DNA of 64,000 bases from the NCBI GenBank assembly GCA_000091205.1, contig AP006492.2, one strand, 5' to 3'. Of this stretch, positions 5,129 through 49,182 are shown piece after piece. The first letter of the stretch is position 1; each line of letters starts with the position of its first letter. The notes under the pieces are model-generated. The model saw only the letters and a list, made by a program, of their open reading frames with translations, searched no databases and was not told where the DNA came from. Source of the DNA: Cyanidioschyzon merolae (Eukaryota). Made by a program: the position numbers and the translations under genes.

Positions 5129-5153
5129 TTTCTCAGCAAGACTGGCAAAAGAA

Positions 5154-5225
5154 AGGAGGCAGTCGGATTTGAACCAACGACCTATCGGACTGCAGCCGAT
5201 TGCTCTACCACTGAGCTATACCTCC
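5154..5225 (-). tRNA. tRNA-Cys (anticodon GCA)
   Basis: Reverse complement reads GGAGGTATAGCTCAGTGGTAGAGCAATCGGCTGCAGTCCGATAGGTCGTTGGTTCAAATCCGACTGCCTCC plus discriminator U. Cloverleaf with 7-bp acceptor stem, D-arm GCTC/GAGC, anticodon loop CU-GCA-GU, T-arm GTTGG/CCGAC with TTCAAAT loop. A T-rich run follows the 3' end on the coding strand. Confidence 0.85.
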
Positions 5226-5645
5226 TGAGCGGCTTGCGTGAAAATGAGCACAAATTTCTATATAAATACGTGTTCGACGTTGATCGCATCCGCGGCGCAG
5301 CCGCGAATCCCCGCTGGCGCACGCGATCCGCTGCAGGTGCTCGGCGCGTGGCGGCGCGCTGCGCCATCCCTTTGACAAAGCGAAGAAGCGACCTTGGACC
5401 CGAGCGTGCGATAATGATCAAGTTTCATGGGGGAACGCAAAGCGGTACGGTGCGCGCTTGCAACTGCCGTGGCGGTTTCGCTTGGAAAGTGAGCTCTGAG
5501 TCATAGGTGCTCCTCATGTTGTTTCCCTGCGCATGGCGTCGAGCATGAAGAAGCGTGGATAGATTTTTTAGTTTGATTTATGCGCGCAGCGAGACCTGGA
5601 CGCATAAAGATGCGCCCTCCTTCCTGAATGCAATGCAGGGCCGAA

Positions 5646-9226: not shown

Positions 9227-9706
9227 GCAGAGACTCTACACGGCGTACGGTATGCTCAGGTTAGGAACAAAGCAAGCACCGCGGAGACGGAGGTATGCTT
9301 GTGTGACGTGATTCGTCAATGGGTGCGCTTAAGTGACGAGTATCGGGAAAGCGACAAGTTCTGCAAGGAAACGCAACCCTACAAAAGAACTGTACGCCCT
9401 GCCTGCAAGTTTCGTTCTTCTTTAGGGACTCCCTGACGTTTCTTCCACGAATTGCTGTGCTAGTTCGTCGAACTCTGTCTCCGGCAGCGCTCTTAGAGTG
9501 TTTGCGGGAACGCAGCTGTCTGCGATAGTGCTGGACAAACGCGCAGGTGCCAGTAGAGCCAGTGTCCACCGAAAGCTCCGTGTGTCCTCGTATAGGAATT
9601 CTAGGACTGGCCAATTGATTCTGATAGTGGTTGTCTGGTTCATGAAGAACGACCGAATAAAAGCAAGCGGATCAGTTGCTGACATTTCGTGAAAAATGTC
9701 CTCAGT

Positions 9707-11740: not shown

Positions 11741-12313
11741 ATGGGTGCGAACGCGTCCACTTTGCTGGACGACGATATAACAGAAATAGTGGCCTCGTCG
11801 TCTTTCTCGAAAGATGAAATCGAGCAACTGTATAGCCGCTTTCAAAAGCTAGACCGCAACGGATCCGGAACGATCGATGCTTCAGAGTTCCTGATGATTC
11901 CGGAGCTCGCCATGAACCCACTTGTGCCGCGTATTGTCCAGCTTTTTGACGGTGTTAACTTCAAAGAGTTTGTGCGGCTGCTCTCGGCGTTCGGAAAAAA
12001 CGCACCTCGGGAAGCACGGATTGACTTCTTGTTCCGCTTTTACGACGTTGATGGGGATGGGGTGGTCAGCGAAGCAGACGTCAACAGTATTTTTCGGTTG
12101 CTCGTTGGCGAAAACCTGGACGACGCCACCTTGCGACGAATCGTACGCCAGGCTATGCTGGACTTTGGCGCTGGCCTAGAAGCTCTGGATGGCGGAGACG
12201 AGAGCGAAGAGCTGAACGGCTGTAGCGTTCAGTGCCGACCGCTCACGAGAGAGGACTTCTGTCGAAAGCTTCAAAACGTCGAACTCGATCGCATTTTACA
12301 AATATCCGTTTAG
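11741..12313 (+). CDS. Calcineurin B-like EF-hand Ca2+-binding protein (N-myristoylation motif MGxxxS)
   Basis: MGANASTLL... start. EF-hand loops DRNGSGTIDASEF and DVDGDGVVSEADV. PELAMNPLVPRIVQLFD matches the calcineurin B PELQQNPLVQRVIDIFD block. ATG at 11741 confirmed in sequence. Confidence 0.75.
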   Translation: MGANASTLLDDDITEIVASSSFSKDEIEQLYSRFQKLDRNGSGTIDASEFLMIPELAMNPLVPRIVQLFDGVNFKEFVRLLSAFGKNAPREARIDFLFRFYDVDGDGVVSEADVNSIFRLLVGENLDDATLRRIVRQAMLDFGAGLEALDGGDESEELNGCSVQCRPLTREDFCRKLQNVELDRILQISV

Positions 12314-12668
12314 GACTTCATTCCGGTGACCGCATTCGCTATGCTTCGTCAATCGAGCAGGGCATGCACCCCCAGGAGCCGCCTACGTGGCTACGCCTCC
12401 CCGCTCATGCTCTCTTTTTCAAGGCGATATCATTGGTGACCAGGCGAGCTGGTGCGTGCCCAGTGGTGCGTATCCACGAATACAACGCGCGCTCTCTACA
12501 ACAGCGTCTAGCGGCAGCCTCGGTTGTGGTGCTTTCGGAGTCGGCGTGCGGCGTGCACGAGGCACTGTCACCCTTCAACAAGCTCAGTTTAGAGGAGCCT
12601 CACAGGTCTCTTGCGGGACCAAAGTTCAGAGCCGCAGTCTCGCGCACTGGAGGTCGCCTTCTCTCTCT

Positions 12669-12697
12669 GTGTGTGTATGTATGTGTGTGTGTGAGCG
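12669..12697. repeat. (GT)n/(GTAT)n microsatellite
   Basis: gtgtgtgtatgtatgtgtgtgtgtg. Shorter in paralogous copy at about 46269-46290. Confidence 0.8.
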
Positions 12698-13144
12698 ACG
12701 CACAGCGGCCTCGCGAAAGGACGCGAGACCCCGCTCTGCGTACATTTACCACAACGATGCGCCTTCCTCGACGAACGTACATAACATAGGGGCATGCTAG
12801 AGTCTCCAGCAGAGTCGTCCTCGCTTTACATTCCAAGGATGTGTACTGCCGTTACATCCATACGTGCGCAGCCGGTGATACCACAGCACGTCATCGTGCA
12901 CAGGCAGGCACACGAGCCGCTCTGTCTCGGGTCCGCAGCTGAGGCACTGTCGCCTCAGAGGTCCAACAGACGCGGATACCGTTCCGCAGCCGCAGAGCAG
13001 GTCGAGCGCCCCAGAGGCAGCGCAGCGGCAACTGCTCCGAGATGGAGCGCTCCTGATGATGCCCGCTACAGATCGACTGTTCAATAAATGAATGAATGGA
13101 ATGCCACCTGGTCGAAGATGTTGCCGAACGGTTCACTAATCCTG

Positions 13145-14821
13145 TCACGACGCTACGACAACTGGTACGGCCTCCGATGTGCAAGCGGTGTCAGTGCCTG
13201 CCCCAGTGCCTGCTCCAGTGCTTGCGTCCGCAACACGCCAACGCGCACGAATAACACTGTCCGCTGGGTATATCGTCGGCAAGTAGATGATCTCGTCGCT
13301 GTGCACGGTGCGCACCCGAGTCCAGTCCACAGTGGTCGCCAGCACCGCCAAATAGCACATCAAATGGTTGATCGCATAGTTCCGCCCGACACACATGTGC
13401 GGACCGCAGCCAAACGTCAGGAAATGCTTCCGGTACTTTTGCTCCTCCTGCCGCGGCGGCAGCATCCGCTCCGGATCGAAGCGTTCAGGTGACGGAAAGC
13501 CCTGCATGCACGCAGTCCAGAGACTCGGCACCACGAGCGCACCTCGCGGCACCTCGTAGCCGTTCGGCAGCTGCACCCGCTTGCTCGCAACCTGCGGAAC
13601 CATCACAGGCGGCGGCCGGAAGCGCAGCACCTCCAGAACGACCGCGCGCGTGTACACCATCTGCTCCAGCAGCTCGTAGGTGATCGGCTCGTCGTGCGGG
13701 CGCAGCCGCTGTTGCTCTTCGCGCACCCGCTGCAGCACGTCGGGTCGCTCGGCCACCAGCACAGTCGTCCATACCAGCGACGCTGTCGACGCATCCTGAG
13801 ACGCAAACAAAAAGTCCAGCATGGCGTCCGCCATCTCGTGGTCCGCGCTGTACTTGGGCGGCGCCCGGTTCTCGCGCTTCGCAGCTGCAACCTCCTCCAG
13901 CACGGACACCGTCCAAAAGTCCAGCAGGCACTGCGGCTCCGCCTCGGCGTCCTTCCGGAAACGCTCCTTCGACGCCCGTACACACGCAGTCAGGTCCCGT
14001 AGTACACGCTCCCGCGCCCGTATCGCACGCCACAGGCCCGTCCCAGGCAGCGCTAACGGGAACGAAAGAAAACCCTGCGTGATCAGCAGATAGTCCGCAC
14101 AGAAGCGCTCCCGATCGCGCAGGTACGGACCCACAAACACCGTCTGCGACGTCCGCAGATTCAGGTCGCGGATGCGCGGGCGCACCTCAAATGCTGCCGC
14201 GGTGCCGTCCGTGCCGCGCCCCGACAGCCACGCCGCCAGGTGCTCGCCAATCAGGCGCTCGTGGATGCTCACGTACATGCCTAGCGCCTTGGGCGTGAAC
14301 AGCCGCAGAAAAGACTGCCGCAGGAGCTTGTGCTCCTCGCCGCTCTTGAAGGCAATATTGTTCCGCCCGAGGATCCGCCAGCCGTTCGGGTGCAGTATCA
14401 TCTCAAACGCGTGCGGGCCGTTCTCGCTGAGCACGTACCGGCTGAGGTCCGTGTCCGTCACGAAAAGCACGAAGAAGCCCGCCAGCGCATTCCAGCTCAG
14501 GCCGCACGGGTTTAAGCGCCGCTGCCGCTCCCAGAACCCGTACGGCGACAGCACCATTTCCACGATGCTCCCGATGAGCGGAATCACAAACCGCGGGCCT
14601 GGGATTCGCCCGTAGCCCGCCCAGCGCCGCAGTCGCACCTGCTCTGCGATCGCGAGGCCGAGCACCAGCAGCGCAACGTACGCCAGCGCACGGCTGGCGG
14701 TACCCCAGCCGGCGATCCCCAGCGCAGCGTCCGCGCGGCGCAGGCAGTGCCGCGCCACCGATACCACCCACTCGGCTGCTGCCACAGGCGTCGAGCGCGT
14801 AAGCGAGGCCGTCTCAATCAT
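13145..14821 (-). CDS. Cytochrome P450 monooxygenase (membrane-anchored)
   Basis: 558-aa ORF. Heme-binding signature FGCGPHMCVGRNYA, PERF motif (PERFDPER), and an N-terminal hydrophobic anchor ALAYVALLVLGLAIA. ATG confirmed at 14819-14821 on the minus strand. Confidence 0.85.
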   Translation of the reverse strand: MIETASLTRSTPVAAAEWVVSVARHCLRRADAALGIAGWGTASRALAYVALLVLGLAIAEQVRLRRWAGYGRIPGPRFVIPLIGSIVEMVLSPYGFWERQRRLNPCGLSWNALAGFFVLFVTDTDLSRYVLSENGPHAFEMILHPNGWRILGRNNIAFKSGEEHKLLRQSFLRLFTPKALGMYVSIHERLIGEHLAAWLSGRGTDGTAAAFEVRPRIRDLNLRTSQTVFVGPYLRDRERFCADYLLITQGFLSFPLALPGTGLWRAIRARERVLRDLTACVRASKERFRKDAEAEPQCLLDFWTVSVLEEVAAAKRENRAPPKYSADHEMADAMLDFLFASQDASTASLVWTTVLVAERPDVLQRVREEQQRLRPHDEPITYELLEQMVYTRAVVLEVLRFRPPPVMVPQVASKRVQLPNGYEVPRGALVVPSLWTACMQGFPSPERFDPERMLPPRQEEQKYRKHFLTFGCGPHMCVGRNYAINHLMCYLAVLATTVDWTRVRTVHSDEIIYLPTIYPADSVIRARWRVADASTGAGTGAGTDTACTSEAVPVVVAS

Positions 14822-15546
14822 TGCTGTCGCAGCTGCGCTCGATGCTCAAGCACGCGCACGCGCCAGCGAGTACGGCCGCGATCGCGAACGCGAACGCGTG
14901 TGTCTACGACTAGGAGGCGCGCGCCCGTGTGCTTCAGCAGCGTACGCGCCTTTGGACAGCAGCAAACGCTGACCGGTCCCGCTCAAGCGCTGCGCGTTTC
15001 GCCAAAACGTATACACAAACGGCACGCACTTGGTTCACGAGCAAAGCGCTCTGCTCGGTGCCGCTCCAAAATAGTCTCCAGCAACCTCTCGGGGGCGTCT
15101 GCGCCCCAGCACGGCACGCGCAGCTCAGCAACGCCTCGCTCGACGGGGTCTCGCTCAGCCTACCGAGTTCAAGCACGGCTTAGACTAGCCTTGCCCTTGC
15201 TGTGATTCAGTCCTTGCTTTCCCTCGCCGCACTAGACTCAGACTCGTGCGGCACAGCTGCGCACCGTCACGCCGGGTCAAGCGCGCTCGATCGTGTCAGA
15301 GCCCGAGGCAAGCGTTCACACGTGTACACACACACAGACACAAACACACTGATGCAGACAATAAAAACAGTGATATCGACAGGACCAAACCAGAGATGCA
15401 CACACACACTTCGACCCTGTTTGGAATACACACAAGACGGGTGTTCCCCGAAATACTGCTACACTTGATTGTGTTGAAACGCGCCTTCACCGAATAATGA
15501 AATGCGCGGCATCGAGCAGCACGCATCGACGACGCGACAGCCGCAA

Positions 15547-15547
<1 letters not shown>

Positions 15548-15622
<75 letters not shown>
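15548..15622. repeat. (GCGT)n microsatellite, about 19 units, alternating purine-pyrimidine (Z-DNA prone)
   Basis: Tandem gcgt units seen directly. Paralogous tract at 49137-49181 has about 11 units. Confidence 0.9.
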
Positions 15623-15623
<1 letters not shown>

Positions 15624-15739
15624 ATCCATAGACCGCTCGCCTTCAGACGTAGGGCAGCGAGGCACCCGGTCGATGCGGATGCGTCACGCGGGGCAATGCG
15701 CGCCACCACGCATCGATTGCGCTGCCGCTGAGGCCTGTT

Positions 15740-15892
15740 GATGATGATGATGATGGTGATGATGGTGATGCTTGGGAGCGAGGCGGGGAGTCGCTGTGCT
15801 GCGTCGCCGACGCTGCTGGCTACACGATCGCGGGAGGGGGGGGGGTTTGTGTTGATGCTTCTCTCTCTCTCTCTGTGTGTGTGTATGCATCT
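15740..15892. repeat. Compound simple-repeat cluster: (TGATGR)n, G10 run, (CT)n(GT)n
   Basis: tgatgatgatgatgatggtgatgatggtgatg; gggaggggggggggtttg; ctctctctctctctgtgtgtgtgt. Lies upstream of the minus-strand P450. Confidence 0.85.
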
Positions 15893-16136
15893 AACATCGT
15901 GCAGCGTCCCGTAATGGCACCAGATGGTGCAGTCGACGGGGTACGCTGATTTCCCGCAGGCGATGCCCGACATTACGTAGTAGGAAGAATGCCCCACAGG
16001 ATATGCAACGCTTTGTTATTTTCGAACTCGACTGTGTATGACCTCGAGCGAATTGCAAGTACCCTCAATTGATGGAGATGTGGAAGGGAAAAATCATGCG
16101 GAAGGCTCGATTTGCGCATGATGCTCACGTTTTACT

Positions 16137-21855: not shown

Positions 21856-22908
21856 TTACGACTTGTCGATCCGAACGCCGTTCGAAATTCGAACGACGCC
21901 AGCAGTACAGTAGTGGCGAGAAGCCCGACCTAGACTAGTCGTCATTAACCAATGTGCAGACGTCCTCGTCTTTTTCGACCGGCCCCCGCTACTGCTCCCT
22001 TTTTTCTCATATAGTTCCACTTTGAGAGATTGTCCAGCAAAGTTCGCGCTTGTCCAATCTGGTGGTCTCTCCTCCAGCACCGCACATCTCCTTATATTGA
22101 TGGCGGCGTTAGAGTCACGATTCACAAACTCCATCCGTTTCTTGCCATCACTGGTTGCACTTACTAATGCAAAGAGTCCACGAACTTTCGCCCTCCTTTC
22201 CATTTGCTCTTCTGTTAGCAGTCCGTACTTTGCTATATCCTCAGGGCTCCTCTGGCACTTTTCCATCTCGACTCTCTGAAGTGTACAACCCAGCTCGTGG
22301 TGTGTGTAGGACGTTCGGAACTCATCTACAGGTATCGTGACGAAACGCCTTGTGCACTCCTTGTACAACCTTGTCGTTGGAGCTGGTGTACACCCTTTTT
22401 GAATCTTCCATCGCCCTGCTGCGTACGCTACTACGAGCCTTTGAGTCTTGTCCTCTTTGAGGGCACTCAACTGATTGAAAAAGTTGGCGAACGCCTGCTG
22501 CTTACCACAATACAGATTCATTCGCAAACGAGCCCATCGGGGCTTTGTATACTCCTCCCAGAGTGCATCCCAATGGGCAACGCGAACTTCCATAAATTTC
22601 CGAAAAGCTTCAAAGTCCGCACCTCGGCTCGTCATCTCGCCCAAAGCTTCCAGGTGATCCTTCATTCCTGAATTCCAAGTCTCGATTTTCTTCCTCGCAT
22701 TCATTATACCGGATTCTCGATAGTATCTTGCTCTCGAGAACCTCATCAGACGCATGTCTTTCTGACGTAAGTTACCATCAGCGCCATCTTCTGCACGCTT
22801 CGGTGCTGCGATGGTTGTGATATTCGTATTCCCAGGGTCCGCGCCACCGACAAAGTCGTTATCTTGCACTTTCTCGGTCACAGGACCCGCCCTCCTTCTT
22901 TTCTTCAT
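21856..22908 (-). CDS. Fanzor/TnpB-like RuvC endonuclease, C-terminal catalytic half (RuvC-I, RuvC-II, Zn-ribbon remnant, RuvC-III)
   Basis: RuvC-I: [27 protein letters not shown] (GxDxG...DG). Bridge block: [29 protein letters not shown], where TnpB has LeYKa..G..v..Vdp.yTSq.C. RuvC-III: [14 protein letters not shown], where TnpB has DaDvNAAiNI. Zn-ribbon reduced to H/C remnants. Canonical RuvC-II Glu position reads VVAYAAG. Confidence 0.55.
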
Positions 22909-23075
22909 GCTTCACCGCGTCAATGGCAAGGTAGTCATCCTGCACCACCGGCGTCGCAGGATCCGCCTCCTTCTCATCTTCATCCTTCGCCGCGCCGACG
23001 ATAAGGTCGTTATCCTCCACCTCCTGCATCACAGAATCCTCCTCTTTGTTTTCTGCATCCCTCGTGACGGGCGCG
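22850..23075. repeat. In-frame 66-bp (22-codon) tandem repeat inside Fanzor-like ORF, about 3 units
   Basis: Units encode ..[24 protein letters not shown] / [25 protein letters not shown] / [21 protein letters not shown]. The last unit runs into the RuvC-I motif. Copy 2 has 4-5 units (33545-33835). Confidence 0.75.
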
Positions 23076-24584
23076 GCCGAGGGCGGATCTGGACGATCTT
23101 TCTTCAACCGCCGATAGAGTACACACGTGGCTACTCCATCGGTTTCGATCAACCCAGCAAATACCTTTTGTTTGCTGACTTTGAGACGTTTGAAGTCGAA
23201 GATACTCTTCCAGTACGTCTCCCGGTTTTCACCGATGAAGTCCTCCCTGCTCACATCGAACTCCGGACAGATCTCCCTCATGATGCCGTAAAGGACGCCT
23301 GAATCGATAGTCACGAAATGTGACTTGATATTGCACATTGGAACGCCGTTGAAGCGCTTACCCATTAGGAAAGCCTTCCGTCTCTCCCACTCTTGATTTG
23401 TCTCTTCACTCAGCTTCATCTCCGCTTCGCGTTCGAGCTCTCGGTCCAGAAACACGAAATATCACAGGATGAGGCGGTAGTATCTTTCCTTATCTTTTTT
23501 CAACTCTGATCAATTTTCTGCCAAATTCGCCAGCCCCAGGACTGCACGATACTCTTGGATAGCCGCACGGATTACAGAAGCTTCATTTGCGCTCCTGCGT
23601 GACGCCTTCTTATCGACAAACTCGATCTCAACTTCATACTTGCGATCTTTCATGATGCCATTGATAATCGCCCATTTTCCGTTGCGAGCGATGCCCGGGT
23701 AGAGTGTACCCACCGCGCGTATCATAAAACGTTCGAGGTTCACTGTCAAATGGTTCTTCAGACTCGTGGTGTACTTTTTCGCTCCGTATGCCTAAATATC
23801 CGAGGCACCCCTGTATCGATTACCTTCGAAGCGGAATTCCACCAAGTTTTCGTGGAGGGCGTGCACTAGCACATTTTCCTTCAGCGCTTCCGCTGTGCCA
23901 AGCATCAGGTGACGAATAAACGTCTTGTCGAAAAACTCGTCAGGAATCTCGACTGTTTCCGTGTGCGTCACGTCGCGATACATCTCCCTCACCAAATGCA
24001 TCAGTACTGACGACGCCTTGACAATACTCTTGGAGTACGAGTCGACATGGTTTCTGATAGCGTCTCGCAACTTTTCGTTGCACGGATCCTTGATATGTTT
24101 AAGAAGGAAGGTTTTCACCACCATCTCGTCGTAAAGTCGTCTTTGTTGCAGCCTTCAACGTAGGGCCTCCCCTTTCGGTTCTTCTTCTCTCCCTTTTCTT
24201 CTGGACTCGGCACTGTTTTTTGTTTTTTTTTCTGGCAGCCGGCGACCCTGGGCCTCCAGGATCGTGGACTTGCTTTTTCATAGCTTTCCTTTTTTAGTTT
24301 TTTTTTGAAAAACAACGCTCTGTGAACGCTTCTGTTATATACTGCGAAAAAAAACTTGAACACACTTGTTTGAGGTTTGAAAGAAAAATGAACTAAAAAA
24401 CTGTACTCTGCTAAGACCTTAACGGAAATCCAATTTTTCCAGTAGAACAACACGCTACTGATCAGGATCGCGTTTCCCTTCAACGGCGGCATTCGCATCG
24501 TGTCAGTAGACTGGCCGATCTCCGAGGTATCTCGGCGTCGATCTGGTCGTGGTGAGCAAAACGCCGGGTACAAAAACACCGATA

Positions 24585-27500
24585 ACAAAACAAACTAGTC
24601 GCAAACTATTTATTAAAGAACAACTATCTTAAAGACCCACACACCACGCCCGCCTTAGAGGTCTAGTTTTTCCGGAGAAGCTCTGAAAGTGGGTTAACGC
24701 GGGGTGCTTGGGCGACGGCGAAGGAAGCCCACGCCAGGGACCTTGACCGCAACGAACGGAGGGGCGGCGGCAGTAGCACCAGAAAATGTTGACGAAAATC
24801 CTGATTAGTCATCCGCCCCTCCCGAATCAACGCTGCAGGTTCGGGCGCAAATCTTGGATCGATCCTCGGACTCGGGCTCCGTTTTACCTCCTACCTTGGC
24901 TACCTACCTCAACTTTGGGAACAATTTCGGCGGATACTTTGGAAGACGGCTGGCAGTATGTTCACTGTCGAAGCTGGAATAAGCGGCTTGCCCGCCTATG
25001 TGTTTGGGGAGCGGATACGTAGCCGCTGAAAGGGTGGTTTGCAGACTGTTCCCAATTGTTGAGGGGAGGTTAAAGCGTCGGGCAAGATAAAGGTCGCATT
25101 CGAATCGACCTTGACTAGCGTACATCTGATTCTACGCTAGCGCTGCGGCAGACGCTCAATGAACGACTGGAATGCAGGAGGCGCTGGTGGCATGTGCGAT
25201 CACACACGCCATGGAGGGTGCATCTCAATCGACAACGTATCTCTCGAGTACCGCAGCGTTAATCCTATTCCCTTATGCGCTACGACTCGATAGGTTTCGC
25301 ATCATGGAATATTTGTGGGATCGCCTCGGTATTGAACTACGAGATATCGAATTACCAGTACAGTAATGAAGAACTGATACAAGTCGAGGACTGTACAAAA
25401 GGCAAAAGAGACCCAACCAGACACGGAGAAGGAGACACAGAAACCTCATGATCCACCTAGATGCAAAATAACCAGAGAATGTAGCTCAGGAAAGAACCCG
25501 ATGAAGAAGAAAACCAACAAGAGAAAAACAGAAGAATAGGAAGAAGAACTCCCGAACGAGTCCACAGGCGGGGGCTCCAGCGAACCCATCACAAGTCGTC
25601 CCCGAAAGAGCACCCCAGCAGGAACTCAAGAAAGCCGTCGCCAAACCGAGTCACCTACTCACAGCGCTGAAGATCCGAAAAGCCGTGCATACAAATCTTT
25701 AGACCAATTGGCACGCGAGTTTGTAGATGGGAATCAGAAGTTGCCGGAGAGCTGGGACTGCTTGCACCAGAACGCAACAGTTGCAAACCTCAGTGCCTGA
25801 AACGACGTACCAATACCCGGATTGACGAGCGCCACCGACTCTATCAGATCGTCAACCACACCGCCATACGCGCCAACGCTGGAGACAAGGAAGCGAAGGC
25901 AGTCCTAACGGCGCTACAGGCACAACATGAAGAAGCTATCAAAAGAAAGAAGAAACTTTCCAGAGAAGACAAACGAGAGGATCGAAACCGCAAAATCGCC
26001 TCCCTAGCGAAATCTATGCTAGAGAGCACCAACGAAGATGAGACCTGGCGCTACATTCGATCGAGACTGGACCCACCAAAAAAGTGCTTGGGGCTCACAC
26101 CAATCGTTTATGAGGAAGTGCTGAGGACGGAGCGTGCCTCAGTGAATGAGGCCTGGACGGACCACGGCACAGAGCTGCATGAAGACGCAACTGGGAACTG
26201 CCAAGACAGAATCTATTGGCACCAGTATGCCGCAGAACTACCGCGCCTCGAACCGGTACCGGAATGGAACGACCCAATCTTCTGGCCTGAATCTGTTCGG
26301 ACCGTGCTATGCTCAAGCAACCGCAAAACACCTGGCATCGACGGTATCGCGGCGGAGTGGATGAAACTGGTGATCCCAAAAGACGGGACAAGAGGGACAC
26401 TATCGATACCAGATGAACCTGACACAAGCTTAGGCAAACGCCTTGTGGAGCTCATCCAACGCATGTTCGAAGAGGCGTACATCCCGGATTTATGGAGGAC
26501 TGCCGAGGTCGTACCGATCCTCAAAAAGGACTCCGACGTACACAAACACAGACATGAACAACTACCGGACTATTCGCCTCATCCCGTCAATCATGAAGCT
26601 ACTTTGCGCCATTCCCACGAACCGGACTCAGAGAGGCCTCGTGGAACGCAAGTTCTTCGCCCCAGAACAGGCTGGATTCCGGAGCCACGAGGAGTGCATG
26701 AGCCATGCCCTGACCCTAACTGAAGTGGTGCAACGTCGCTCCATTAGCGGCCAACAACCAGCTTACGTATGCTTCACCGACTTTCAAAAGGCCTTTGACA
26801 CGGTCCCGCACGAGGCTCCATTTCTCAAGATGGAACGAGCCCAAGTCTCCGGAAAGTGCTTAGCGTTCTTCCGTGCGCTCTATGCAGACTCATGGATGCG
26901 CATCCGACTGGGCGACCGCTCAAGAACCCCTTCCAGAAGAATCCGCCGTGGACTGCGGCAGGGCGAGCGCGCATCCCCGCTCCTTTTCAACATCTTCATC
27001 AACGATCTGCTGAACAACTGCAGACAATACGGGCTTGAGGTGCCGTGGATAGACTGTGGAGATACCCGATGAGGAGCTCTCACATAGGAACCGCCTCGCA
27101 GGCCGTCTAGTTGCGGACGATGTCGTGCTGTTGGCACCCGCCCCGGAAACGCTTGCGGGTAGCATGGAACAAGTCAGCGCCCGGGCCGATCGCTGGGAGA
27201 TGAGCATAGGAGCATCGAAGTGCGGCGTCATGGTCATCCATGGAGACTCGCAGAGCATTCGCAATCGCTCGTGGCGGTTGCAGAATCAGGAAATTCCGAT
27301 CGTGGAAAAATATCGCTACCCGGGGGTCTGTCTAACGCCGACGCTCGACGAAGAGGCACACGTCGACGAGATGATCGCCAAGATGCATAGACGTACAGCG
27401 ATCGCACGTCCATTCCCATCCGACCCCTCTATCTGCATAGCAATTCGTACCAGGGCACGAAGGATGTGTATCATCCAGCCTGCGACCTGGGGTGCTGAGT

Positions 27501-28878
27501 GGTGCGGCATGAACCACACAAATGCCTCACGTCTGCAGATAGCCGCCAACATGGCAATGCGACTCGTTGTTGCTGTTGGATGCTCAATGTAGAGCAGAGC
27601 AACCACCGCGCTGGCACTCGGACTTGAACTCCAAATAGCCTCGACAGAGGCGACAGCAGCAGGTTGCCGGGCACGCATATGGGGCAAAGGGCCAACTATG
27701 AACACCTGGTTCGATCGGATATCCATGCAGACCCCAACGCACCGCAAGAACACTTGGATGAAATCGACGCAGATTTGGCTGAAGCGCCTCTTAGGGGACA
27801 ACACGCTCCCCAATCGTTCCCCAGGAATGTAGAAGACTTCAGACGCCTCAAGCGAACGGTCCAAACAACAATTTGGGAACGTAGACACGGAACCAGTCGC
27901 GCCAGTAACGCCGGCTTAACTCTATACCGGAACTACAACCTAGCATACACATGCAAGTACTGGTGGGAGGCGCTGGAATTCCCGGGACTTGCTCGAGGTA
28001 CCCAGTGGCTCGCCAAAATCCGCGTTGATGGCTTCTGGCTAGCGGCACCGGCTCTAAACCATATAGGGACACTGGAATCGCACTGGGAGTCACACTGTCC
28101 CTGCTATCGAGACGAAATCCCCGAGACGCTGACATATTTAGGCTTACAGTGCCCGCGCTGGAAGCAGGAGCGCAGCGAGCTCCTTGAAGGACAGCAGCAG
28201 CTGGGCATCACCATGATAGCCGAGGGCCGGACATTCACTTTGAGTGCAGCACTGGCAACTGATGGTCCGCTAACAGATCCTCAGTGCTCATTAGTGGCCA
28301 ACAAACTCACATGCTACGTTCTAGGCATGAGGTCCAGCGTATCGGATGCGCACACGGGCCCAGTGCGCTTTCTGCGCCCACCTTTTGTGGTGGGTGTCAA
28401 GCACAAATCCGCATTTCCAACCGACGACAACGCATTCCATGCATGATCACGAAGGAGAGAGGCGGCTCCCACGATATATCCTAACAGTCAAGTTTCTCCA
28501 GCGTGTCGTGCAGCGAAGGCAAGCCTGCATCCGCAGACTGTCCGAGCACAAACTGACGACGAGACTCGATTCTACGTCGGGTGAAGCACACCTCGAGCCG
28601 ACGCCCTTTGTGGTATAGAAAAGCCGTTCTGTCTCCATGATGCATCTGTACCAAAGGTAAAGACGCTATTGCGGATAATTAGGACAGGTTCTGGGCACAC
28701 GATAGGACGTATGAGATGACCAGAATATCTGAGACGAAGTATAGGTAATGGAACTTGGGAGTAGCCTGTTTGATGGATACTTCACGGCGCACTGAAAAAA
28801 AGAGAAAAAAGTAAGAAAAGAAAAATGCGCGTGATCGGAGAACGCTGGCCTAAGTAAACGTTTTGTCAACGAAAAAAC
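24585..28878 (+). mobile_element. Non-LTR (LINE-like) retrotransposon, copy A, degenerate (frameshifted)
   Basis: RT motifs across three frame segments (26016-26723, 26443-27072, 27056-27592): NYRTIRLIPSIMKLL, FRSHEECMSHAL, QGERASPLLFNIFINDL, LVADDVVLLA (FADD-box variant), CGVMVIHG. C-terminal Cys/His domain HCPCYRDEIPETLTYLGLQCPRW at 27664-28446. A-rich 3' tail region. No apurinic-endonuclease domain recognisable. Confidence 0.8.
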
Positions 28879-28926: not shown

Positions 28927-29144
28927 GCAATCGCCGGAAAGCTCTGCGCCGCTGCAATCGCCGGAAAGCTCTGCGCCGCTGCAATCGCCGGAAAGCTCTG
29001 CGCCGCTGCAATCGCCGGAACGCTCTGCGCCGCTGCAATCGCCGGAACGCTCTGCGCCGCTGCAATCGCCGGAAAGCTCTGCGCCGCTGCAATCGCCGGA
29101 AAGCTCTGCGCCGCTGCAATCGCCGGAAAGCTCTGCGCCGCTGC
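28927..29144. repeat. 27-bp minisatellite, about 8 units (gcaatcgccggaaagctctgcgccgct)
   Basis: Seen directly. Immediately 3' of LINE copy A. Absent at the equivalent junction of copy C. One frame reads RRAFRRLQR repeatedly. Confidence 0.9.
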
Positions 29145-29221
29145 AGGCGCGCCGGCCAGAGCGCTCTCCATAGATCCGTAACTCTTATTTTGCGTGTGCA
29201 GAGGCTAGAGCGGTACGCTGG

Positions 29222-32504: not shown

Positions 32505-32575
32505 AGCGTCCCATACCTCCGATGCTCGGGTGCTTCAAGTGCACGCACACCGCCACCGCCACCGCCTTTTACACT

Positions 32576-33896
32576 CGAACGACGCCAGCGGTGTACAGTA
32601 TTGGCGAGAAGCCCGCCTTGGACAAGAAGTTTTCAACTGCGGTGTAGACGCCTCCCAGCCCTTTTGCATCGGCCACCTACTACTGCTTCCAATCTTTTCT
32701 CATATAATTCCACTTTGAGAGGTTGTCCAACAAAGTTCTCCCGTGTCTACTCTGGAGGTCTTTTCTCCAGCACCGCACATCTCCTTATATTGATTGCGGC
32801 ATTAAAGTCTCGGTTCACAAACTCCATACGTTTCTTGCAATTGATTGTACTTCCTAATGCTAGTAGCCCTCGCACTTTCGCCCTCCTTTCCATTTGCTCG
32901 TCTGTCAGCGGTCCGTACTTTGCGATTTCCTCAGGGCTCCTCTGGCACTTTTCCATCTCGACCCTCTGGAGTGTACAGCCCAGTTCATGGTGTGTATAGG
33001 ACGTTCGGAACTCGTCTACATGTATCGTGACGAAACGCCTTGCACACTCCTTATATGTTTTTGCCGTTGGAGCTGGCGTGGTCCCTTTTTGGGTCTTCCA
33101 GTGTCCCGCTCCGTACGCTACTACTAGCCTCTGATTTCCATCCTCCTTCAGGTCACTCAACTGATTGAAGAAAATCGCGAACGCCCGCTGCTTACCAAAA
33201 TACAAATTCATTCGCAAACGAGCCCACCGGGGCTTTGTATACCGCCCCCCACAGCGCATCCTAATGTGCCATGCGAAATTCCATGAATTTCCGAAAAGCT
33301 TCAAAGTCGGCTCCTCGGCTCGTCAGCTCGCTCAAAGCTTCAAGGTGATCTTTCATTCCTGAATTCCATTTCTCGGTTTTCTTCCTCGCATTCATGATTC
33401 CCGATTCCCGATTGTATCTCGCTGTCGAGAACCTCAAAAGACGCATGTCTTTCTGACGCAAGTTGCCGTCGGTACCATCCTCCGCGAGCTTGGGCACAAC
33501 GATGGTTACGATATATGTGTTTCCGGAGTCCGCGCCAACGACAAAGTCGTTCACATGCACTTTCTGTAGGGCAGGATCCGCCTTCTTCTCATCTTCATGC
33601 TTCGCCGCGTCAACGACAAACTCGTTATCCTGCACCTTCTGTGTCGCCGGATCCGCCTCCTTCTCATCTTTATGCATCGCCGCGCCAACGATAAAGCCGT
33701 TATCCTCCACCTTCTGCGTCACAGGACCCGCCTCCTTCTCATCTTTATGCATCGCCGCGCCAACGAATAGGTCGTTATCCTCTGCTTCCTGCGTCGCAGG
33801 ATCCGCCTCCTTCTCATATTCATGCTTCGTCGAGGGCGCAGCAGAGGGCGGGACTGGACGATCTTTCTTCAACCGCCGATAGTGTACACACAAGGC
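32576..33896 (-). mobile_element. TnpB/Fanzor-like element, copy 2: 5'-truncated, frameshifted, premature stop (pseudogene)
   Basis: ORFs 33261-33893 and 32747-33304 share about 88% amino-acid identity with copy 1 (VGADSGNTYIVTIV, RLYKEC-like block, [14 protein letters not shown]). Trp->stop after RPPE. Abuts the LINE copy at 33897. Confidence 0.55.
33545..33835. repeat. 66-bp in-frame tandem repeat inside Fanzor-like copy 2, 4-5 units
   Basis: Repeated [29 protein letters not shown] units in the translation. Confidence 0.75.
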
Positions 33897-36800
33897 TACT
33901 CCATCGGTTTCCTGGTTCCGTGTCTACGTTTCCGTATTGCTGTTTGGACCGTTCGCTTGAGGCGGCGGGAGCCTTGTACATTCCTGGGGAACGATTGGGG
34001 AGCGTGTTGTCCCCTAAGAGGCGCTTCAGCCAAATCTGCGTCGATTTCATCCAAGTGTTCTTGCGGTGCGTTGGGGTCTGCATGGATATCCGATCGAACC
34101 AGGTGTTCATAGTTGGCCCTTTGCCCCATATGCGTGCCCGGCAACCTGCTGCTGTCGCTTCTGTCGAGGCTATTTGGAGTTCAAGTCCGAGTGCCAGCGC
34201 GGTGGTTGCTCTGCTCTACATTGAGCATCCAACAGCAACAACGAGTCACATTGCCATGTTGGCGGCTGTCTGCAGACGTGAGGCATTTGTGTGGTTCATG
34301 CCGCACCACTCAGCACCACAGGTCGCAGGCTGGATGATACACATCCTTAGTGCCCTGGTACGAATTGCTATGCAGATAGAGGGGTCGGATGGGAATGGAC
34401 GTGCGATCGCTGTACGTCTATGCATCTTGGCGATCATCTCGTCGACGTGTGCCTCTTCGTCGATCGTCGGCGTTAGACAGACCCCCGGGTAGCGATATTT
34501 TTCCACGATCGGAATTTCCTGGTTCTGCAACCGCCACGAGCGATTGCGAATGCTCTGCGAGTCTCCATGGATGACCATGGCGCCGCACTTCGATGCTCCT
34601 ATGCTCATCTCCCAGCGATCGGCCCAGTCGCTGACTTGTTCCATGCTACCCGCAAGCGTTTCCGGGGCGGGTGCCAACAGCACGACATCGTCCGCAACGA
34701 GACAGCCTGCGAGGCGGTTCCTACGTGAGGGCTCCTCATCGGGCATCTCCACAGTCTATCCACGGCACCTCAAGCCCGTATTGTCTGCAGTTGTTCAGCA
34801 GATCGTTGATGAAGATGTTGAAAAGGAGCGGGGATGCGCGCTCGCCCTGCCGCAGTCCACGGCGGATTCTTCTGGAAGGGGTTCTTGAGCGGTCGCCCAG
34901 TCGGATGCGCATCCATGAGTCTGCATAGAGCGCACGGAAGAATGCTAAGCACTTTCCGGAGACTTGGGCTCGTTCCATCTTCAGAAATGGAGCCTCGTGC
35001 GGGACCGTGTCAAAGGCCTCTTGGAAGTCGATGAAGCATACGTAAGCTGGTTGTTGGCCGCTAATGGAGCGACGTTGCACCCATCAATGAGGGTCAGGGC
35101 ATGGCTCATGCACTCCTCGTGGCTCCGGAATCCAGCCTGTTCTGGGGCGAAGAACTTGCGTTCCACGAGGCCTCTCTGAGTCCGGTTCGTGGGAATGGCG
35201 CAAAGTAGCTTCATGATTGACGGGATGAGGCGAATAGTCCGGTAGTTGTTCATGTCTGTGTTTGTGTACGTCGGAGTCCTTTTTGAGGATCGGTACGACC
35301 TCGGCAGTCCTCCATACATCCGGGATGTACGCCTCTTCGAACATGCGTTGGATGAGCTCCACAAGGCGTTTGCCTAAGCTTGTGTCAGGTTCATCTGGTA
35401 TCGATAGTGTCCCTCTTGTCCCGTCTTTTGGGATCACCAGTTTCATCCACTCCGCCGCGATACCGTCGATGCCAGGTGTTTTGCGGTTGCTTGAGCATAG
35501 CACGGTCCGAACAGATTCAGGCCAGAAGATTGGGTCGTTCCATTCCGGTACCGGTTCGAGGCGCGGTAGTTCTGCGGCATATTGGTGCCAATAGATTCTG
35601 TCTTGGCAGTGCCCAGTTGCGTCTTCATGCAGCTCTGTGCCGTGGTCCGTCCAGGCCTCATTCACTGAGGCACGCTCCGTCCTCAGCGCTTCCTCATAAA
35701 CGATTGGTGTGAGCCCCAGGCACTTTTTTGGTGGGTCCAGTCTCGATCGAATGTAGCGCCAGGTCTCATCTTCGTTGGTGCTCTCTAGCATAGATTTCGC
35801 TAGGGAGGCGATTTTGCGGTTTCGATCCTCTCGTTTGTCTTCTCTGGAAAGTTTCTTCTTTCTTTTGATAGCTTCTTCATGTTGCGCCTGTAGCGCCGTT
35901 AGGACTGCCTTCGCTTCCTTGTCTCCTGCGTTGGCGCGTATGGCGGTGTGGTTGACGATCTGATAGAGTCGGTGATGCTCGTCAATCCGGGTATTGGTAC
36001 GTCGTTTCAGGCACTGAGGTTTGCAACTGTTGCGTTCTGGTGCAAGCAGTCCCAGCTCTCCGGCAATCTTCTGATTCCCATCTACAAACTCTCGTGCCAA
36101 TTGGTCTAAAGATTTGTATGCACAACTTTTCGGATCTTCAGCGCTGTGAGTAGGTGACTCGGTTTGGCGACGGCTTTCTTGAGTTCCTGCTGGGGTGCTC
36201 TTTCGGGGACGACTTGTGATGGGCTCGCTGGAGCCCCCGCCTGTGGGCTCGTTCGGGAGTTCTTCTTCCTATTCTTCTGTTTTTCTCTTGTTGGTTTTCT
36301 TCTTCATCGGGTTCTTTCCTGAGCTACATTCTCTGGTTACTTTGCATCTAGGCGGATCATGAGGTTTCTGTGTCTCCTTCTCCGTGTCTGGTTGGGTCTC
36401 TTTTGCCTTTTGTACAGTCCTCGACTTGTATCAGTTCTTCATTACTGTACTGGTAATTCGATATCTCGTAGTTCAATACCGAGGCGATCCCACAAATATT
36501 CCATGATGCGAAACCTATCGAGTCGTAGCGCATAAGGGAATAGGAGTAACGCTGCGGTACTCGAGAGATACGTTGTCGATTGAGATGCACCCTCCACGGG
36601 GTGTTTGAGAGCACATGCCACCAGCGCCTCCTGCATTCCAGTCGTTCACTGAGTGTCTGCCGCAGCGCTAGCGTAGAATCAGATGTACATTAGTCAAGGT
36701 CGATTCGAATGCGACCTTTATCTTGCCCGACGCTTTAACCTCCCCTCAACAATTGGGAACAGTCTGCAAACCACCCTTTCAGCGGCTACGTATCCGCTCC

Positions 36801-37226
36801 CCAAACACATAGGCGGGCAAGCCGCTTATTCCAGCTTCGACCGCAAACATACTGCCAGCCGTCTTCAAAAGTCTCCGCCGAGACTATTTCCAAAGTTGAG
36901 GTAGGTAGCCAAGGTAGGAGGTAAAACGGAGCCCGAGTTCAAGGATGGATCCAAGATTTGCGCCCGAACCTGCAGCGTTGATTCGGGAGGGGCGGATGAC
37001 TAATCAGGATTTTCGTCAACATTTTCTGGTGCTGCTGCCGCCGCCCCTCCGTTCGTTGCGGTCAAGGTCCCTGGCGTGGGCTTCCTTCGCCGTCGCCCAA
37101 GCACCCCGCGTTAACCCACTTTCAGAGCTTCTCCGGAAAAACTAGACCTCTAAGGCGGGCGTGGTGTGTGGGTCTTTAAGATAGTTGTTCTTTAATAAAT
37201 AGTTTGCGACTAGTTTGTTTTGTCTT
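33897..37226 (-). mobile_element. Non-LTR retrotransposon, copy B (3'-truncated), same family and same frameshifts as copy A
   Basis: ORFs 35084-36100, 34981-35364, 34736-35080 and 34246-34752 mirror the copy A segments at about 95% identity. The 5' end matches copy A at 24585. Lacks the last about 1 kb of the element. Confidence 0.8.
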
Positions 37227-37496
37227 TTTTTATTCTCCTCGCGCCCGTTGCATCACTAGCCACATTATTCGCGGCGTTTCTCCGTCCTATTCGAGTAGTT
37301 ATTGTTACTTTGTGCACATTGTTTAAAGCGCGTTCGTTTATTGAAAAACTCAAAACAGTATTCAATCGTGTGTACCTCGACTTGAAAATGACCTGCCGTG
37401 CCAGCCGCTGCATGCACGCGCTGTTAATCGTTCAATTCTTGCACATAAAAGCGAATTTGTTGACGGGGTGTAGGTTCATTGTGCTTGGGGTGAACG

Positions 37497-38786: not shown

Positions 38787-41402
38787 CGTCTCCGTGGCAC
38801 TGGCCAGAAGCGCCGTTCGGCCCAACACTCATTTCAGCTTCGTCCAAGGTAAAGCTGGGGTTAGGGGTACCGGTTCGAATGAGTGTAACTTGTTCCAGCT
38901 CACAGACTCCGTGGAGTTGTCTTTAGCTATCGTTTGCGACCGTCCGCTTCGCCGGAGTGTGCCTTTGACGGACCTGGAGCTCTTCTGGTATCTCTTCTTG
39001 AACCAGCGGTCGAAGTCGTTTCGGGAGACGGTCTGCTACGTCAGCAAAGAAAGGGCCGCGACTTTTAGCTCGAAGAAAGCGAATCCTCCGCGCCTCCGCT
39101 GCGCGTCGCCAACGTGGCGTACGGTTATTCAGTATCGGAAACGGCGGTCGGTGGATCCGCATTCCGATGACCCCGAGCACCCCTAAGAGCATGGTGCGTA
39201 TAACGTAAAGTTGCAAGTCCGCGTGATGATGTAATTGTCCCTGTGAAAATGCGTCCACCATGGGACCGTCGAGCAGCGCGGAAAAACGCTGCCCAGGGAC
39301 TCGGCGCCTTCTGTGCACCAGCTGCTGACCCCTCGCCACACGCGCAGACAAGCCCTCGGCCGCAGCGTCGCGGCGACAAAACCTTCCACAAGTGCCAGCA
39401 GCTTTGTAAGCAGTTGAAAAGAGACCCGCGAACGCCAGTGTTTGGCTGGTTTTTCCGAAAAGCATCCGTGCGTCAACTCCTCTAGTCCAAAGTTTGCAAG
39501 CTGTACGCACACAGTATAAAGTTCCTTAGAACGCAGCACCAGCATGAGCGCTTGCCGTAGGCGCCGCCAGTTTGAGATCCGATCACCACCGTCGCGCAAC
39601 GCCGTGGCACAGGCACTCGCGGAGGCGTCTTGTTCTTATGCAGAGGCAGTGCTGCGGCAACGGTGCATCCTGGGTACCGGTACGTACCTGCGGTAGGCTT
39701 GGCATCTGGTGGTTCGCTCGACTGTGCAATCCGTTATGCCAACGCGAATACTAGTCCGATGTGACTGGAACCCGAACGTGCTTAGATCGGAGCGGGAGTG
39801 TCTCCACGGCGTCCAGGTCAACTGCGCATCCCGGGGATTCTTGTAAGCGTTGTCGATTGTGCATCATAGGGAAAGCCGGCGCTGGCATAGACGCAAGTCG
39901 TCTCGCAGCTCGCTGGATCCAAAGTAGAATCCGCACAGACGGACAAGACCAGGGCTGATAGAAAATTGTCAAATACGGTGAAGCGCTGCAGCGATCTCGT
40001 TTTTGCTGATCGATATACTCAGCAGTATCAGCTCATAGAACACGCTTATCGCGCATGAATCTCCAGGGGGAATGATTCCAGGTACAAGTTTCAACCGTGC
40101 TCTAGATTTGCTGCATTGTGTTTGCCGTACAACCTTTGTGCTTTGCTCCAGCGAGTAACCGATCCCCTCTGTCCTGACCGCTGATTGTTTACTTCGATAG
40201 CATTCAGCGTTTCAGCACAACGCTCACAATGACTGTTAAACGATTCCCTCGAACGTCCGCTTAACGTAAAGCCACCGAACGCTCTGGAGGCACGAGACAT
40301 TCCCGGATGTCGACTGCAGATGCTGCCGTCGACACAAACATATCAGACAGGACTTTTCCTCAGGAACGGAAACTCGATTGGCCCGGTGAATCTCCAGATG
40401 CCCAGCGCACCGCGTACGTTGCACGGTCTCAGCGTGGCGTTGCAGTGCCTCCAGCCATGGGGGCGGCTTCCTACAACGCTCGCACCCTTGGGGTTTCCCG
40501 GTCAGTCTTGACGATCTTGCACCGTAAAAAAATCCAAGGTCACATTCGATGATCGTCAGGTCTGCCTGCACACAATTTGTTTTGATCGACATAACATTTC
40601 AGTGAACCAGGGATCCTCGATTTCTTAATCGAAAGAAAGTACACACGAGCTCGGGATCCTCGAGTGCGCGAAGGATCTCGGCATCCAGTAGAGCGTGGCA
40701 TAGTGTTCGCGCTGAAAACGGGAAAGGTTTTCGGCATTTTCGAAAGGTTACCTTCTAGGCGGACGCTCCCGCGAACCGCTCGAGTCTACCAGGCTAGTGA
40801 ATCATCTACCTCTCCAATGGCAGGTGCTTTAGTGATATCTGAGCAGCAACTCGTCCGCTACGCAGTTCACTCTGGGACAAAGAGCGGGTAGATTGCGCCT
40901 GGACGTCGCTCTGGCCGCTGTAGACTCCCTGCATATTGCTTCGCGATGCGGCACGCAGTACGTCTCTCCGTACAGTTAGCAGGCTCCCAGAATGATTTTG
41001 TACTCCGACCCCATGTCGGGTGATCCACGCGTCGAGCCGGCTACCCCAGTGGTATGGCAGAGCCGTACTGTTTCCGTGAGGCATCGGCTCCAGCAGTATA
41101 AGCGCCAAGGCGGGCGCTCAAAGCAAGCAATCGCCGCGCGATTGAAGGTACAAAACGGCCAGCACCTCCGAGAGAAAATATGGGATATAGAGCTGGAAGT
41201 TAGGGCACAACATAAAGAGCGATTTCTCGTCTGCCAATAGCTATCCCGCAATCTGGAGTCCATAATCAATGAAAATGCTTTGTCACTGCGGCCCGCGGCG
41301 GCCGTGCGTTACGCCGCGCAGTACCTCGGGAATTCAATTTCCGACCGACAAACGAACTGGCTGCTGCTTCTCAGTATTTTCTGTCGCCGCTGAGACGCTT
41401 CC

Positions 41403-49136: not shown

Positions 49137-49137
49137 A

Positions 49138-49181
<44 letters not shown>
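49137..49181. repeat. (GCGT)n microsatellite, about 11 units
   Basis: Paralog of the 15548-15622 tract, shorter. Confidence 0.9.

Positions 49182-49182
<1 letters not shown>

Follow-up and report, generated by a model that had tools for sequence, protein, structure and literature searches.

How does a family of long interspersed nuclear elements (LINEs) come to consist of copies that share inactivating lesions and have no recognizable endonuclease? The question is raised by a 64,000-nucleotide stretch of the Cyanidioschyzon merolae genome (contig AP006492.2; the whole stretch is called the window here), in which self-BLAST and a three-way alignment delimit three copies, A, B, and C, of one retrotransposon that lacks long terminal repeats (a non-LTR element). 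C. merolae serves as a model of the minimal eukaryotic genome, and mentions of its 26 retroelements usually do not go beyond a count: the 16.5-Mb genome of strain 10D has only these 26 class I elements, all non-LTR-like, three of them with an "intact RT ORF" (an open reading frame for reverse transcriptase), and no long intact ORF was found (Nozaki et al. 2007, PMC1955436). A first-pass annotation, made from the letters of the window, had proposed that the copies either descend from an already-defective template or spread by segmental duplication, and had detected no APE-type endonuclease 5′ of the RT. From the copies, their relatives, and the pattern of substitutions, we consider it moderately probable that the family lost its APE domain, that the truncated ORF stayed under selection while the element was reaching new sites, and that the sub-lineage in the window descends from a defective template.

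The family and its 5′ region

Coordinates are those of the window and, unless marked otherwise, of the plus strand, on which copy A lies. Copy A (24585–28877) is a full-length element of 4293 bp, whose 5′ end is common to copies on the metagenome contigs L006, L086, and L088 and whose 3′ end is common to C, L004, L008, and L088. Copy B (33912–37223, minus strand) has a complete 5′ end and lacks about 980 bp of the 3′ end; it corresponds to A 24585–27896, to which it is 97.8% identical. Copy C (61968–64000, minus strand) has a complete 3′ end, leaves the window at its edge, and corresponds to A 26851–28877 at 93.4% identity; B and C are 96.4% identical, so that the earlier estimate of about 95% among the copies was fair. 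The best protein matches are to "retroelement, alive [C. merolae 10D]" (BAM80398.1 and BAM80536.1), with 88 to 92% identity for the RT pieces, which also match many unnamed JGI metagenome proteins. The assignment to a LINE-like family in the first-pass annotation is borne out by the three copies, the match to the Pfam RT domain RVT_1, and the fact that all close relatives are LINE ORFs; hints of the clade are limited to the nearest solved RT structure, which for the relative L007p is L1 ORF2p (E = 5e−25, ahead of R2 at 1e−16), and to a weak zf-RVT match in one relative (P0019, Pfam). All three window copies are dead members of the C. merolae non-LTR family that is annotated in 10D as "retroelement."

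Thirteen metagenome contigs (L002–L006, L008, L018, and L083–L088) supplied further copies 87 to 91% identical to A; L003/L008 and L004/L018 overlap at 99.9 to 100% identity, and each pair was counted once. Of 10D itself, 3 of the 26 copies and two annotated ORFs are covered. The resulting 16-copy alignment contains no intact copy: each has several frameshifts, L088, a second full-length copy with both flanks present, included. The majority consensus is almost open: one ORF runs from the ATG at A 25275 to a frame-shifting site within the RT (site 2, below), and a second, in the +1 frame, continues to about 28291 or 28446.

The layout from which this consensus departs can be read from its intact relatives. 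Contigs L007, L009, and L011 encode intact ORFs of 1325 to 1389 aa with both PF03372 (APE) and RVT_1, and in each of the seven next-nearest full-length relatives an APE likewise scores above the Pfam cut-off. The APE-bearing relatives are intact single ORFs of 1260 to 1390 aa, with an RT identity of 35 to 42%, and consist of an N-terminal domain of about 100 to 250 aa, APE, linker, RT, a CPxC..H....C knuckle, and a C-terminal tail. P0019, P0026, and P0031 seem APE-less only because they begin at the C-terminal APE motif LSDHWP.

The first-pass annotation had described 24585–25560 as a conserved region without a long ORF. This is literally so, the longest ORF of the 5′ kilobase being not above 78 aa, and it is equally so that the frame-repaired 1044-aa consensus, which matches RVT_1 at E = 3.6e−29, has no Pfam match to PF03372 or PF14529 at E ≤ 1. 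However, the region is not an anonymous untranslated region (UTR), and the endonuclease is more than undetectable. Translated in the consensus frame, the kilobase reads ..RLCVWGADT*..RVRQDKGRIRIDLD*..WWHVRSH..MRYDSIGFASWNICGIAS..ELIQVED, colinear with the final part of the N-terminal domain in the relatives and with the opening residues of their APE. A decayed N-terminal domain (24786–25274), with a candidate old ATG at 24786 and in-frame stops at 25020–25022 and 25116–25118, was recognized by hhalign and tblastn: the remnant aligns with the N-termini of APE-bearing relatives at E = 2e−4 (hhalign), the alignment running through SWNI, and at E = 0.003 in tblastn with L009p. One of its stops, after IDLD, is present in all copies and the second in most. 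The present ORF starts at the next segment (25275–25391; ATG, MRYDS), in which about 40 aa of the APE N-terminus survive as a vestige, with SWNICG at 25302 and ELIQVED reaching 25391; hhalign covers its beginning, and the vestige was aligned by eye to VVSWNINS..ILCLQETR of L007p and P0041, as was the pairing of ELIQVED with LCLQETR. In place of the APE core there is a Lys/Arg/Ser/Thr-rich linker of about 100 aa (25392–25707), followed by the conserved LAREFV..ARELGL region, which opens a pre-RT N-terminal extension (25708–26530, LAREFV to VVPILKK) recognized by tblastn to relatives.

Spacing supports the same anatomy. From the start of APE to the start of the RT the C. merolae consensus measures about 399 aa versus 519 to 550 aa in seven relatives. 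The APE core, some 120 to 150 aa, is missing in all nine of the 16 sampled copies that span the region, and no copy in the 16-copy alignment has extra DNA at that position. Judged from these alignments, the seemingly ORF-less 5′ region consists of a decayed N-terminal domain, an APE vestige of about 40 aa, and a linker, and the family consensus derives from a single-ORF LINE of the APE type by deletion of the APE core. Descent from such a LINE is supported, and present membership by domain content is not.

A different account would make the sampled elements ordinary dead copies: an APE-bearing master of the same family, past or unsampled, would have mobilized an internally deleted derivative in trans, and any selection on that derivative would reflect cis-acting or partial protein needs. 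Amplification in trans is familiar for LINE derivatives with internal deletions (PMC3627910 cites HAL1), and only a fraction of the 26 copies in 10D has been sampled. However, no such master was found in two large protein collections or in the nine region-spanning DNA copies. Among the matches listed from a collection of 5.8 billion protein clusters, none above 80% identity is longer than 501 aa, and none of these high-identity proteins has an APE; a search with the 5′ region matched only 16 clusters, all of this family and none with an APE. An exhaustive HMMER search returned 511 strong relatives, the nearest full-length, APE-bearing ones being only 38 to 42% identical. Nozaki et al. (2007) likewise saw no long intact ORF, and the ORFs annotated as alive have 348 aa. 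We regard this account as possible, though on the doubtful side. Two other candidates contribute nothing to the question: L001, a relative with 52% identity whose contig is 23.5 kb long, is 5′-truncated and uninformative on APE, and in L087 a PF03372 match close to the LINE falls in a host gene, sphingomyelinase-like by eye, outside the element.

Reverse transcriptase and shared lesions

The RT of the window copies is divided between two frames. Its first half, from NYRTIRLIPS to FINDLL (26551–27069), matches RVT_1 at E = 1e−16, and the RVT_1 match in the next frame is weak. The second half (27075–27800) contains the catalytic box, VADD at 27107–27121 (FADD in the consensus), and a TAG at 27590–27592 common to A, B, and C. 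Frame breaks had been noted between VPILKK and NYRTIRLIPS and before LVADDVVLL, and both are present. At site 1, between VVPILKK (26508) and NYRTIR (26560), A and B have the same 10-bp frame-shifting insertion (26534–26543); C does not reach the site. Although shared by A and B, this is not one lesion inherited family-wide, as site 1 is an indel hotspot with four states among the copies (+10, +4, −1, and in-frame), and the proteins P0001, P0003, P0004, and P0005 read through it. At site 2 (27063–27072), a single T inserted at 27063 (GGAGA-T-NCCCG), common to A, B, and C, creates a TGA at 27070–27072 and splits the RT ahead of its catalytic box; the base after the T is A in copy A and G in B and C. 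Copies A, B, C, L002, L005, L006, L084, and L088 have the inserted T, as do the annotated proteins P0001, P0003, and P0004; it is absent from L003, L004, L083, L085, L086, and L087 and from all distant relatives. P0008, a relative with 52% identity, is without it as well, which makes the in-frame state the ancestral one.

Other lesions follow the same pattern. A and B additionally share +1 at 25403, +1 at 25522, +24 at 25555–25578, and −1 at 25599, and a 2-bp insertion at 27808–27809 that shifts the frame again is common to A, B, C, and L002. The lesions common to A and B number at least seven, and C has three of them within its stretch; a −1 at 25740 and a TAG at 27830–27832 are private to A. 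That the frameshifts might be sequencing or assembly errors can be treated as negligible: nothing was found in favor of it, none of the shared lesions lies in a homopolymer, and the 10-bp insertion and the T each occur in more than one copy (two or three) within a finished genome. Both RT lesions recur, moreover, in independently assembled metagenome contigs and proteins, and this recurrence outside homopolymers excludes sequencing errors as their source.

Both 10D ORFs that carry the annotation "retroelement, alive," P0001 (BAM80398.1/XP_005535005.1, chromosome 10) and P0004 (BAM80536.1/XP_005536572.1, chromosome 11), belong to the same family, the 88 to 92% protein identity to the window copies extending over the pre-RT region and the first RT half. 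They read through site 1, whereas A and B carry the insertion there, and they have the same site-2 stop: both end at it (WIDCGDAR*) and are without the FADD box and everything after it. The label "alive" therefore overstates their state. One might suppose instead that ribosomes undergo a programmed +1 frameshift at site 2 (CGR-UGA-G), as in antizyme or prfB, and that the split RT is still made, since the 0-frame stop falls exactly where the +1 frame continues and at least 8 of the 14 copies covering the site have the T-bearing form, as do the "alive" ORFs. However, the codon before UGA varies (CGG or CGA), as do the three codons between the T and the stop; the in-frame form is the ancestral one; the downstream RT half is without significant purifying selection (see below); and further stops and shifts lie downstream in the window copies. 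Programmed frameshifting is on this evidence very improbable.

Past the RT, the Cys/His cluster that the first-pass annotation had noticed is present, with HCPCY at 28093 and QCPRW at 28147. It forms a degenerate CCHC zinc knuckle (28093–28161, CPCY..ETLTY....CPRW) when compared with P0019, P0026, P0031, L007p, and L009p; the relatives' knuckle reads CPxC..ETxxH....C, and two of the four ligands are Tyr in the family consensus. No Pfam match to a C-terminal PD-(D/E)XK endonuclease was found in the roughly 95 aa past the CCHC, the motif not having been searched by profile.

Selection on the truncated ORF and probable propagation without an endonuclease

Substitutions relative to the consensus were divided into those private to one copy, which are mostly post-insertion decay, and those shared by at least two copies, which arose in lineages still producing copies. 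Synonymous and non-synonymous changes were counted per region, with the two wrong reading frames as controls. For shared variants, omega was lowest in the pre-RT region (0.38 to 0.44, p ≤ 7e−5), followed by the APE vestige (0.45 to 0.54, in the true frame only, p = 0.027) and the first half of the RT (0.51, p = 0.0065). It was 0.60 in the C-terminal region (p = 0.053), 0.79 to 0.97 in the second half of the RT (p = 0.19), and about 1.0 to 1.14 in the N-terminal domain remnant, where p was not significant. Wrong-frame values were 0.75 to 1.3 for the five regions of the present ORF and 0.73 to 0.76 for the N-terminal remnant, and private variants gave 0.62 to 0.98 and 1.28, respectively. A division of the test by sub-lineage, into T-bearing and in-frame copies, left counts too small to interpret.

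Because all sampled copies that span the region carry the APE deletion, the shared variation postdates it, and purifying selection after the loss of APE implies that the truncated ORF mattered for propagation, at least upstream of site 2. The APE-less lineage thus probably kept replicating, a reading drawn from few and partly chimera-prone contigs. The course of events that we favor would begin with a single-ORF APE-type LINE comprising an N-terminal domain, an APE endonuclease, an RT, and a CCHC knuckle. The ancestor of all sampled copies would have acquired the stop in the N-terminal domain, lost some 120 to 150 aa of APE core down to the vestige, and exchanged two knuckle ligands for Tyr. 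The remaining ORF from the ATG at 25275, encoding the basic linker, the pre-RT region, the RT, and the C-terminus, would have stayed under purifying selection during diversification and spread. Propagation after the loss of APE would presumably have proceeded by reverse transcription, with the 3′-OH primer coming from outside the element's own APE, either from pre-existing nicks and breaks (endonuclease-independent target-primed reverse transcription) or from a nuclease acting in trans. The sub-lineage in the window would then have gained the 10-bp insertion at site 1, the RT-splitting T, the premature TAG, and further indels, and A, B, and C would have arisen from this defective template, mobilized in trans by RT-competent relatives or homogenized by gene conversion.

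Several observations weigh against this course of events. The environmental copies lie on short, possibly chimeric metagenome contigs, which weakens the combination of lesions read for each copy: L084 and L087, contigs with the same locus type and 95% identical, nevertheless differ at both RT sites (+4 with the T versus +10 without it), which reflects either chimeric assemblies of repeats or gene conversion between copies. The second half of the RT is without significant selection, although it is also not significantly different from the part upstream (Fisher p = 0.14). The loss of two ligands from the consensus CCHC argues against a fully competent protein. An APE-bearing copy may sit among the 10D copies beyond the 3 of 26 and the two annotated ORFs covered. 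Finally, no target-site duplication was found, in that A and L088 have no direct repeat of at least 8 nt besides A-runs and the element's terminal AAAACAAA, and this absence rests on two full-length copies whose 5′ end is uncertain by about 30 nt.

Among comparable systems, the intact single-ORF APE-type LINEs of uncultured eukaryotes (L007, L009, and L011; P0140–P0150) are colinear with the family throughout: N-terminal domain, APE beginning with SWNI, ARELGL region, motifs of the RT, CPxC..H....C, and ARFL tail. They differ in their open ORF and Pfam-detectable APE, whereas the C. merolae family no longer has the APE core, a continuous N-terminal domain, or two of the Zn ligands. R2/CRE/NeSL-type LINEs differ in that the relatives of the C. 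merolae family carry APE instead. A compact-genome LINE family in which all surviving copies are defective or internally deleted is reportedly also known from Giardia, the "dead" GilD family of Arkhipova and Morrison (2001). Endonuclease-independent L1 retrotransposition, as Morrish and colleagues are said to have described in 2002 and 2007, and the endonuclease-deficient, telomere-associated Penelope-like elements reportedly described by Gladyshev and Arkhipova in 2007 would be analogous, as RT elements that without a nuclease of their own would need pre-existing 3′-OH ends. The L1 cases differ in being engineered or mutant copies in repair-deficient cells, not a whole natural family, and the Penelope-like elements in lying at telomeres; the 64-kb window is gene-bearing, with an ordinary content (phosphoglucomutase, P450, and poly(A)-binding, Myb, and photolyase-like proteins), and no telomere repeat was found in it, so that it is not telomeric. 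HAL1-type deleted LINE derivatives (PMC3627910) also persist as families whose surviving copies are defective or internally deleted; HAL1, however, retains ORF1 and loses the RT, whereas the C. merolae family retains the RT region, loses the endonuclease, and has a truncated ORF under purifying selection.

The annotated family itself is already known, and its anatomy is new: no description of the APE-deleted consensus, of "alive" ORFs that stop before the catalytic box, or of selection on the truncated ORF was found in the searchable literature. If the whole family is without an endonuclease and its "alive" copies end before the catalytic box, the C. merolae genome may have no autonomous retrotransposon, which would bear on its poverty in transposons and introns. 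If the APE-less ORF was indeed under selection, the family would be a natural case of LINE propagation without its own nuclease, so far represented mainly by engineered L1 and telomeric Penelope-like elements. If the family is simply dead, it is an ordinary decayed transposon with a corrected annotation.

Termini, neighboring repeats, and the origin of copies A, B, and C

The copies have a defined 3′ end, an A-rich tail, and 5′ truncation in some members. After the stop at 28444–28446, the 3′ UTR or tail of copy A (28447–28877) ends in ..TTTTGTCAACGAAAAAA; the 3′ end common to A, C, L008, and L088 is ..TTTGTCAAYGR(A)5–10, and the variant in L004/L018 ends in ..TTTCGTCAGTGATTAAAGAAAAA. Among the 5′-shortened copies, L002 begins only at A 24724, and the first 6 nt are missing from L083/L084. 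About 30 nt upstream of the accepted 5′ end are loosely alike in four copies (AGTGAGC or TGATGC, then A-rich; A 24549–24584, B 37224–37260, L006 3148–3178, and L088 1950–1980), and the true 5′ end of the LINE may therefore lie about 30 nt upstream of 24585, with a fast-evolving leader. The 3′ truncation of copy B is atypical for an APE-type LINE; its broken end adjoins an internally truncated repeat (32571–33911), and the loss of about 980 bp looks like a later deletion, or the copy was inserted at a DNA break.

In the 1046 bp common to A, B, and C, A and B share seven derived states, A and C two, and B and C none, with 10 to 15 private changes per copy. These counts agree with the proposal of a common, already-defective template: the three copies would go back by a simple tree to a single defective ancestor, each having drifted by about 1 to 1.5% since. 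Homology among them begins and stops exactly at the element ends, their flanks are unrelated, and the same termini occur in other genomic contexts (L006, L086, L088, and L004). The exact termini and unrelated flanks favor transposition over the segmental duplication that had been offered as the other possibility for A, B, and C, with the caveat that a composite of the LINE and the neighboring repeat described next could have spread as DNA. A defective template copied by transposition must have been reverse-transcribed in trans.

The neighboring repeat, about 2.7 kb long, has two copies in the window, about 82% identical (21878–24553 and the internally truncated 32571–33911, both minus strand), each with a 75-bp tandem array (22878–23064 and 33530–33829). 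Copy A stands head-to-head with the first, whose ORFs are on the minus strand. Its 350-aa ORF (21859–22908, minus strand) has TnpB/Fanzor-like RuvC motifs by eye and no match in Pfam, NCBIfam, and PDB sequence searches. CMe-1A, an unclassified Fanzor1 element of about 3 kb, has about 150 copies some 80% identical to their consensus (PMC3627910); by the by-eye motifs and this published description, the 2.7-kb repeat fits CMe-1A. LINE ends adjoin the same end of this CMe-1A-like repeat, head-to-head, in A (24553/24585), L083 (about 1112), L084 (about 4291), L087 (about 7917), and L002 (2968), the junctions differing slightly, and an inverted LINE 3′ fragment adjoins the repeat end at L008 210–257. 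This recurrent junction could reflect a target preference, a break hotspot, or a composite duplicated as DNA. Two ideas about the junctions were discarded. A GC-rich motif, CACCGGGCG, near several of them is inconsistent across copies as a target preference and may belong to the variable 5′ leader. A LINE-like tail is not an integral CMe-1A 3′ end, as in L002 a 5′-truncated short repeat (described below) merely abuts the CMe-1A end and five other CMe-1A ends are without the tail.

If the copies spread or were homogenized as DNA, by segmental duplication together with the CMe-1A-like repeat or by ectopic gene conversion, no retrotransposition of a defective template would be needed. The head-to-head composite recurs with near-identical junctions and a different far side (L083, L084/L087, and L002); the differences between A and B are clustered (p = 0.003), which keeps gene conversion in play as the source of the shared lesions; the states of sites 1 and 2 occur in all combinations among the copies; and A, B, and C lie within 40 kb and are mutually closest relatives. 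On the other side, the unrelated flanks and exact termini of A, B, and C remain, new insertion sites cannot arise by gene conversion, in B, L006, L086, and L088 the 5′ end is complete and no CMe-1A-like repeat adjoins it, and the combinations of states may be an assembly artifact. We consider spread or homogenization at the DNA level unlikely. The favored sequence of APE loss and continued spread has a more far-reaching version, a LINE lineage that stayed replication-competent for long without APE and primed, independently of an endonuclease, at DNA ends of other origin, for instance at breaks in Fanzor1-carrying CMe-1A termini; this would be decidedly unlikely.

A 625-bp repeat at 56671–57295 is flanked by a 13-bp direct repeat, ATCGATACGTGTA (region 56658–57308), and a second copy lies at 40720–41284. 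The last 380 nt or so of both copies align to the LINE 3′ tail up to its terminus, with 65 to 77% identity and BLAST E values down to 1e−39. Neither Rfam nor tRNA scans found a tRNA-derived head in these repeats, and the consensus fold of the shared 3′ tail has essentially no covariation. The short repeat looks like a LINE-dependent retroposon, resembling a short interspersed nuclear element (SINE), that would have been inserted by a staggered cut, and with its 13-bp duplication it suggests that an endonuclease-competent partner once existed. This counts in favor of an APE-bearing master and ordinary dead copies, as it implies an endonuclease-competent staggered cut at some time. By length alone the repeat may be TE-N2_CMe of Bao and Jurka (635 bp, unclassified); a short repeat with a LINE 3′ tail would offer a testable class, that of LINE-dependent retroposons, for repeats listed as unclassified.

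Two large recent duplications were also observed in the window. One is direct, 3.7 kb long and 98.2% identical (12312–15984 versus 45916–49540), and contains a cytochrome P450 gene; the other is inverted, 1.8 kb long and 98.9% identical (9696–11506 versus 17947–16137). With these two duplications and five transposon copies, the window is very repeat-rich for a genome reported as 0.7% transposons. A 27-bp tandem repeat (28927–29145; 8.1 units, 98% matches) begins 50 bp past the 3′ end of copy A, and a tRNA-Cys (GCA) gene at 5153–5226 (minus strand) is the sole Rfam/ARAGORN match in the window.

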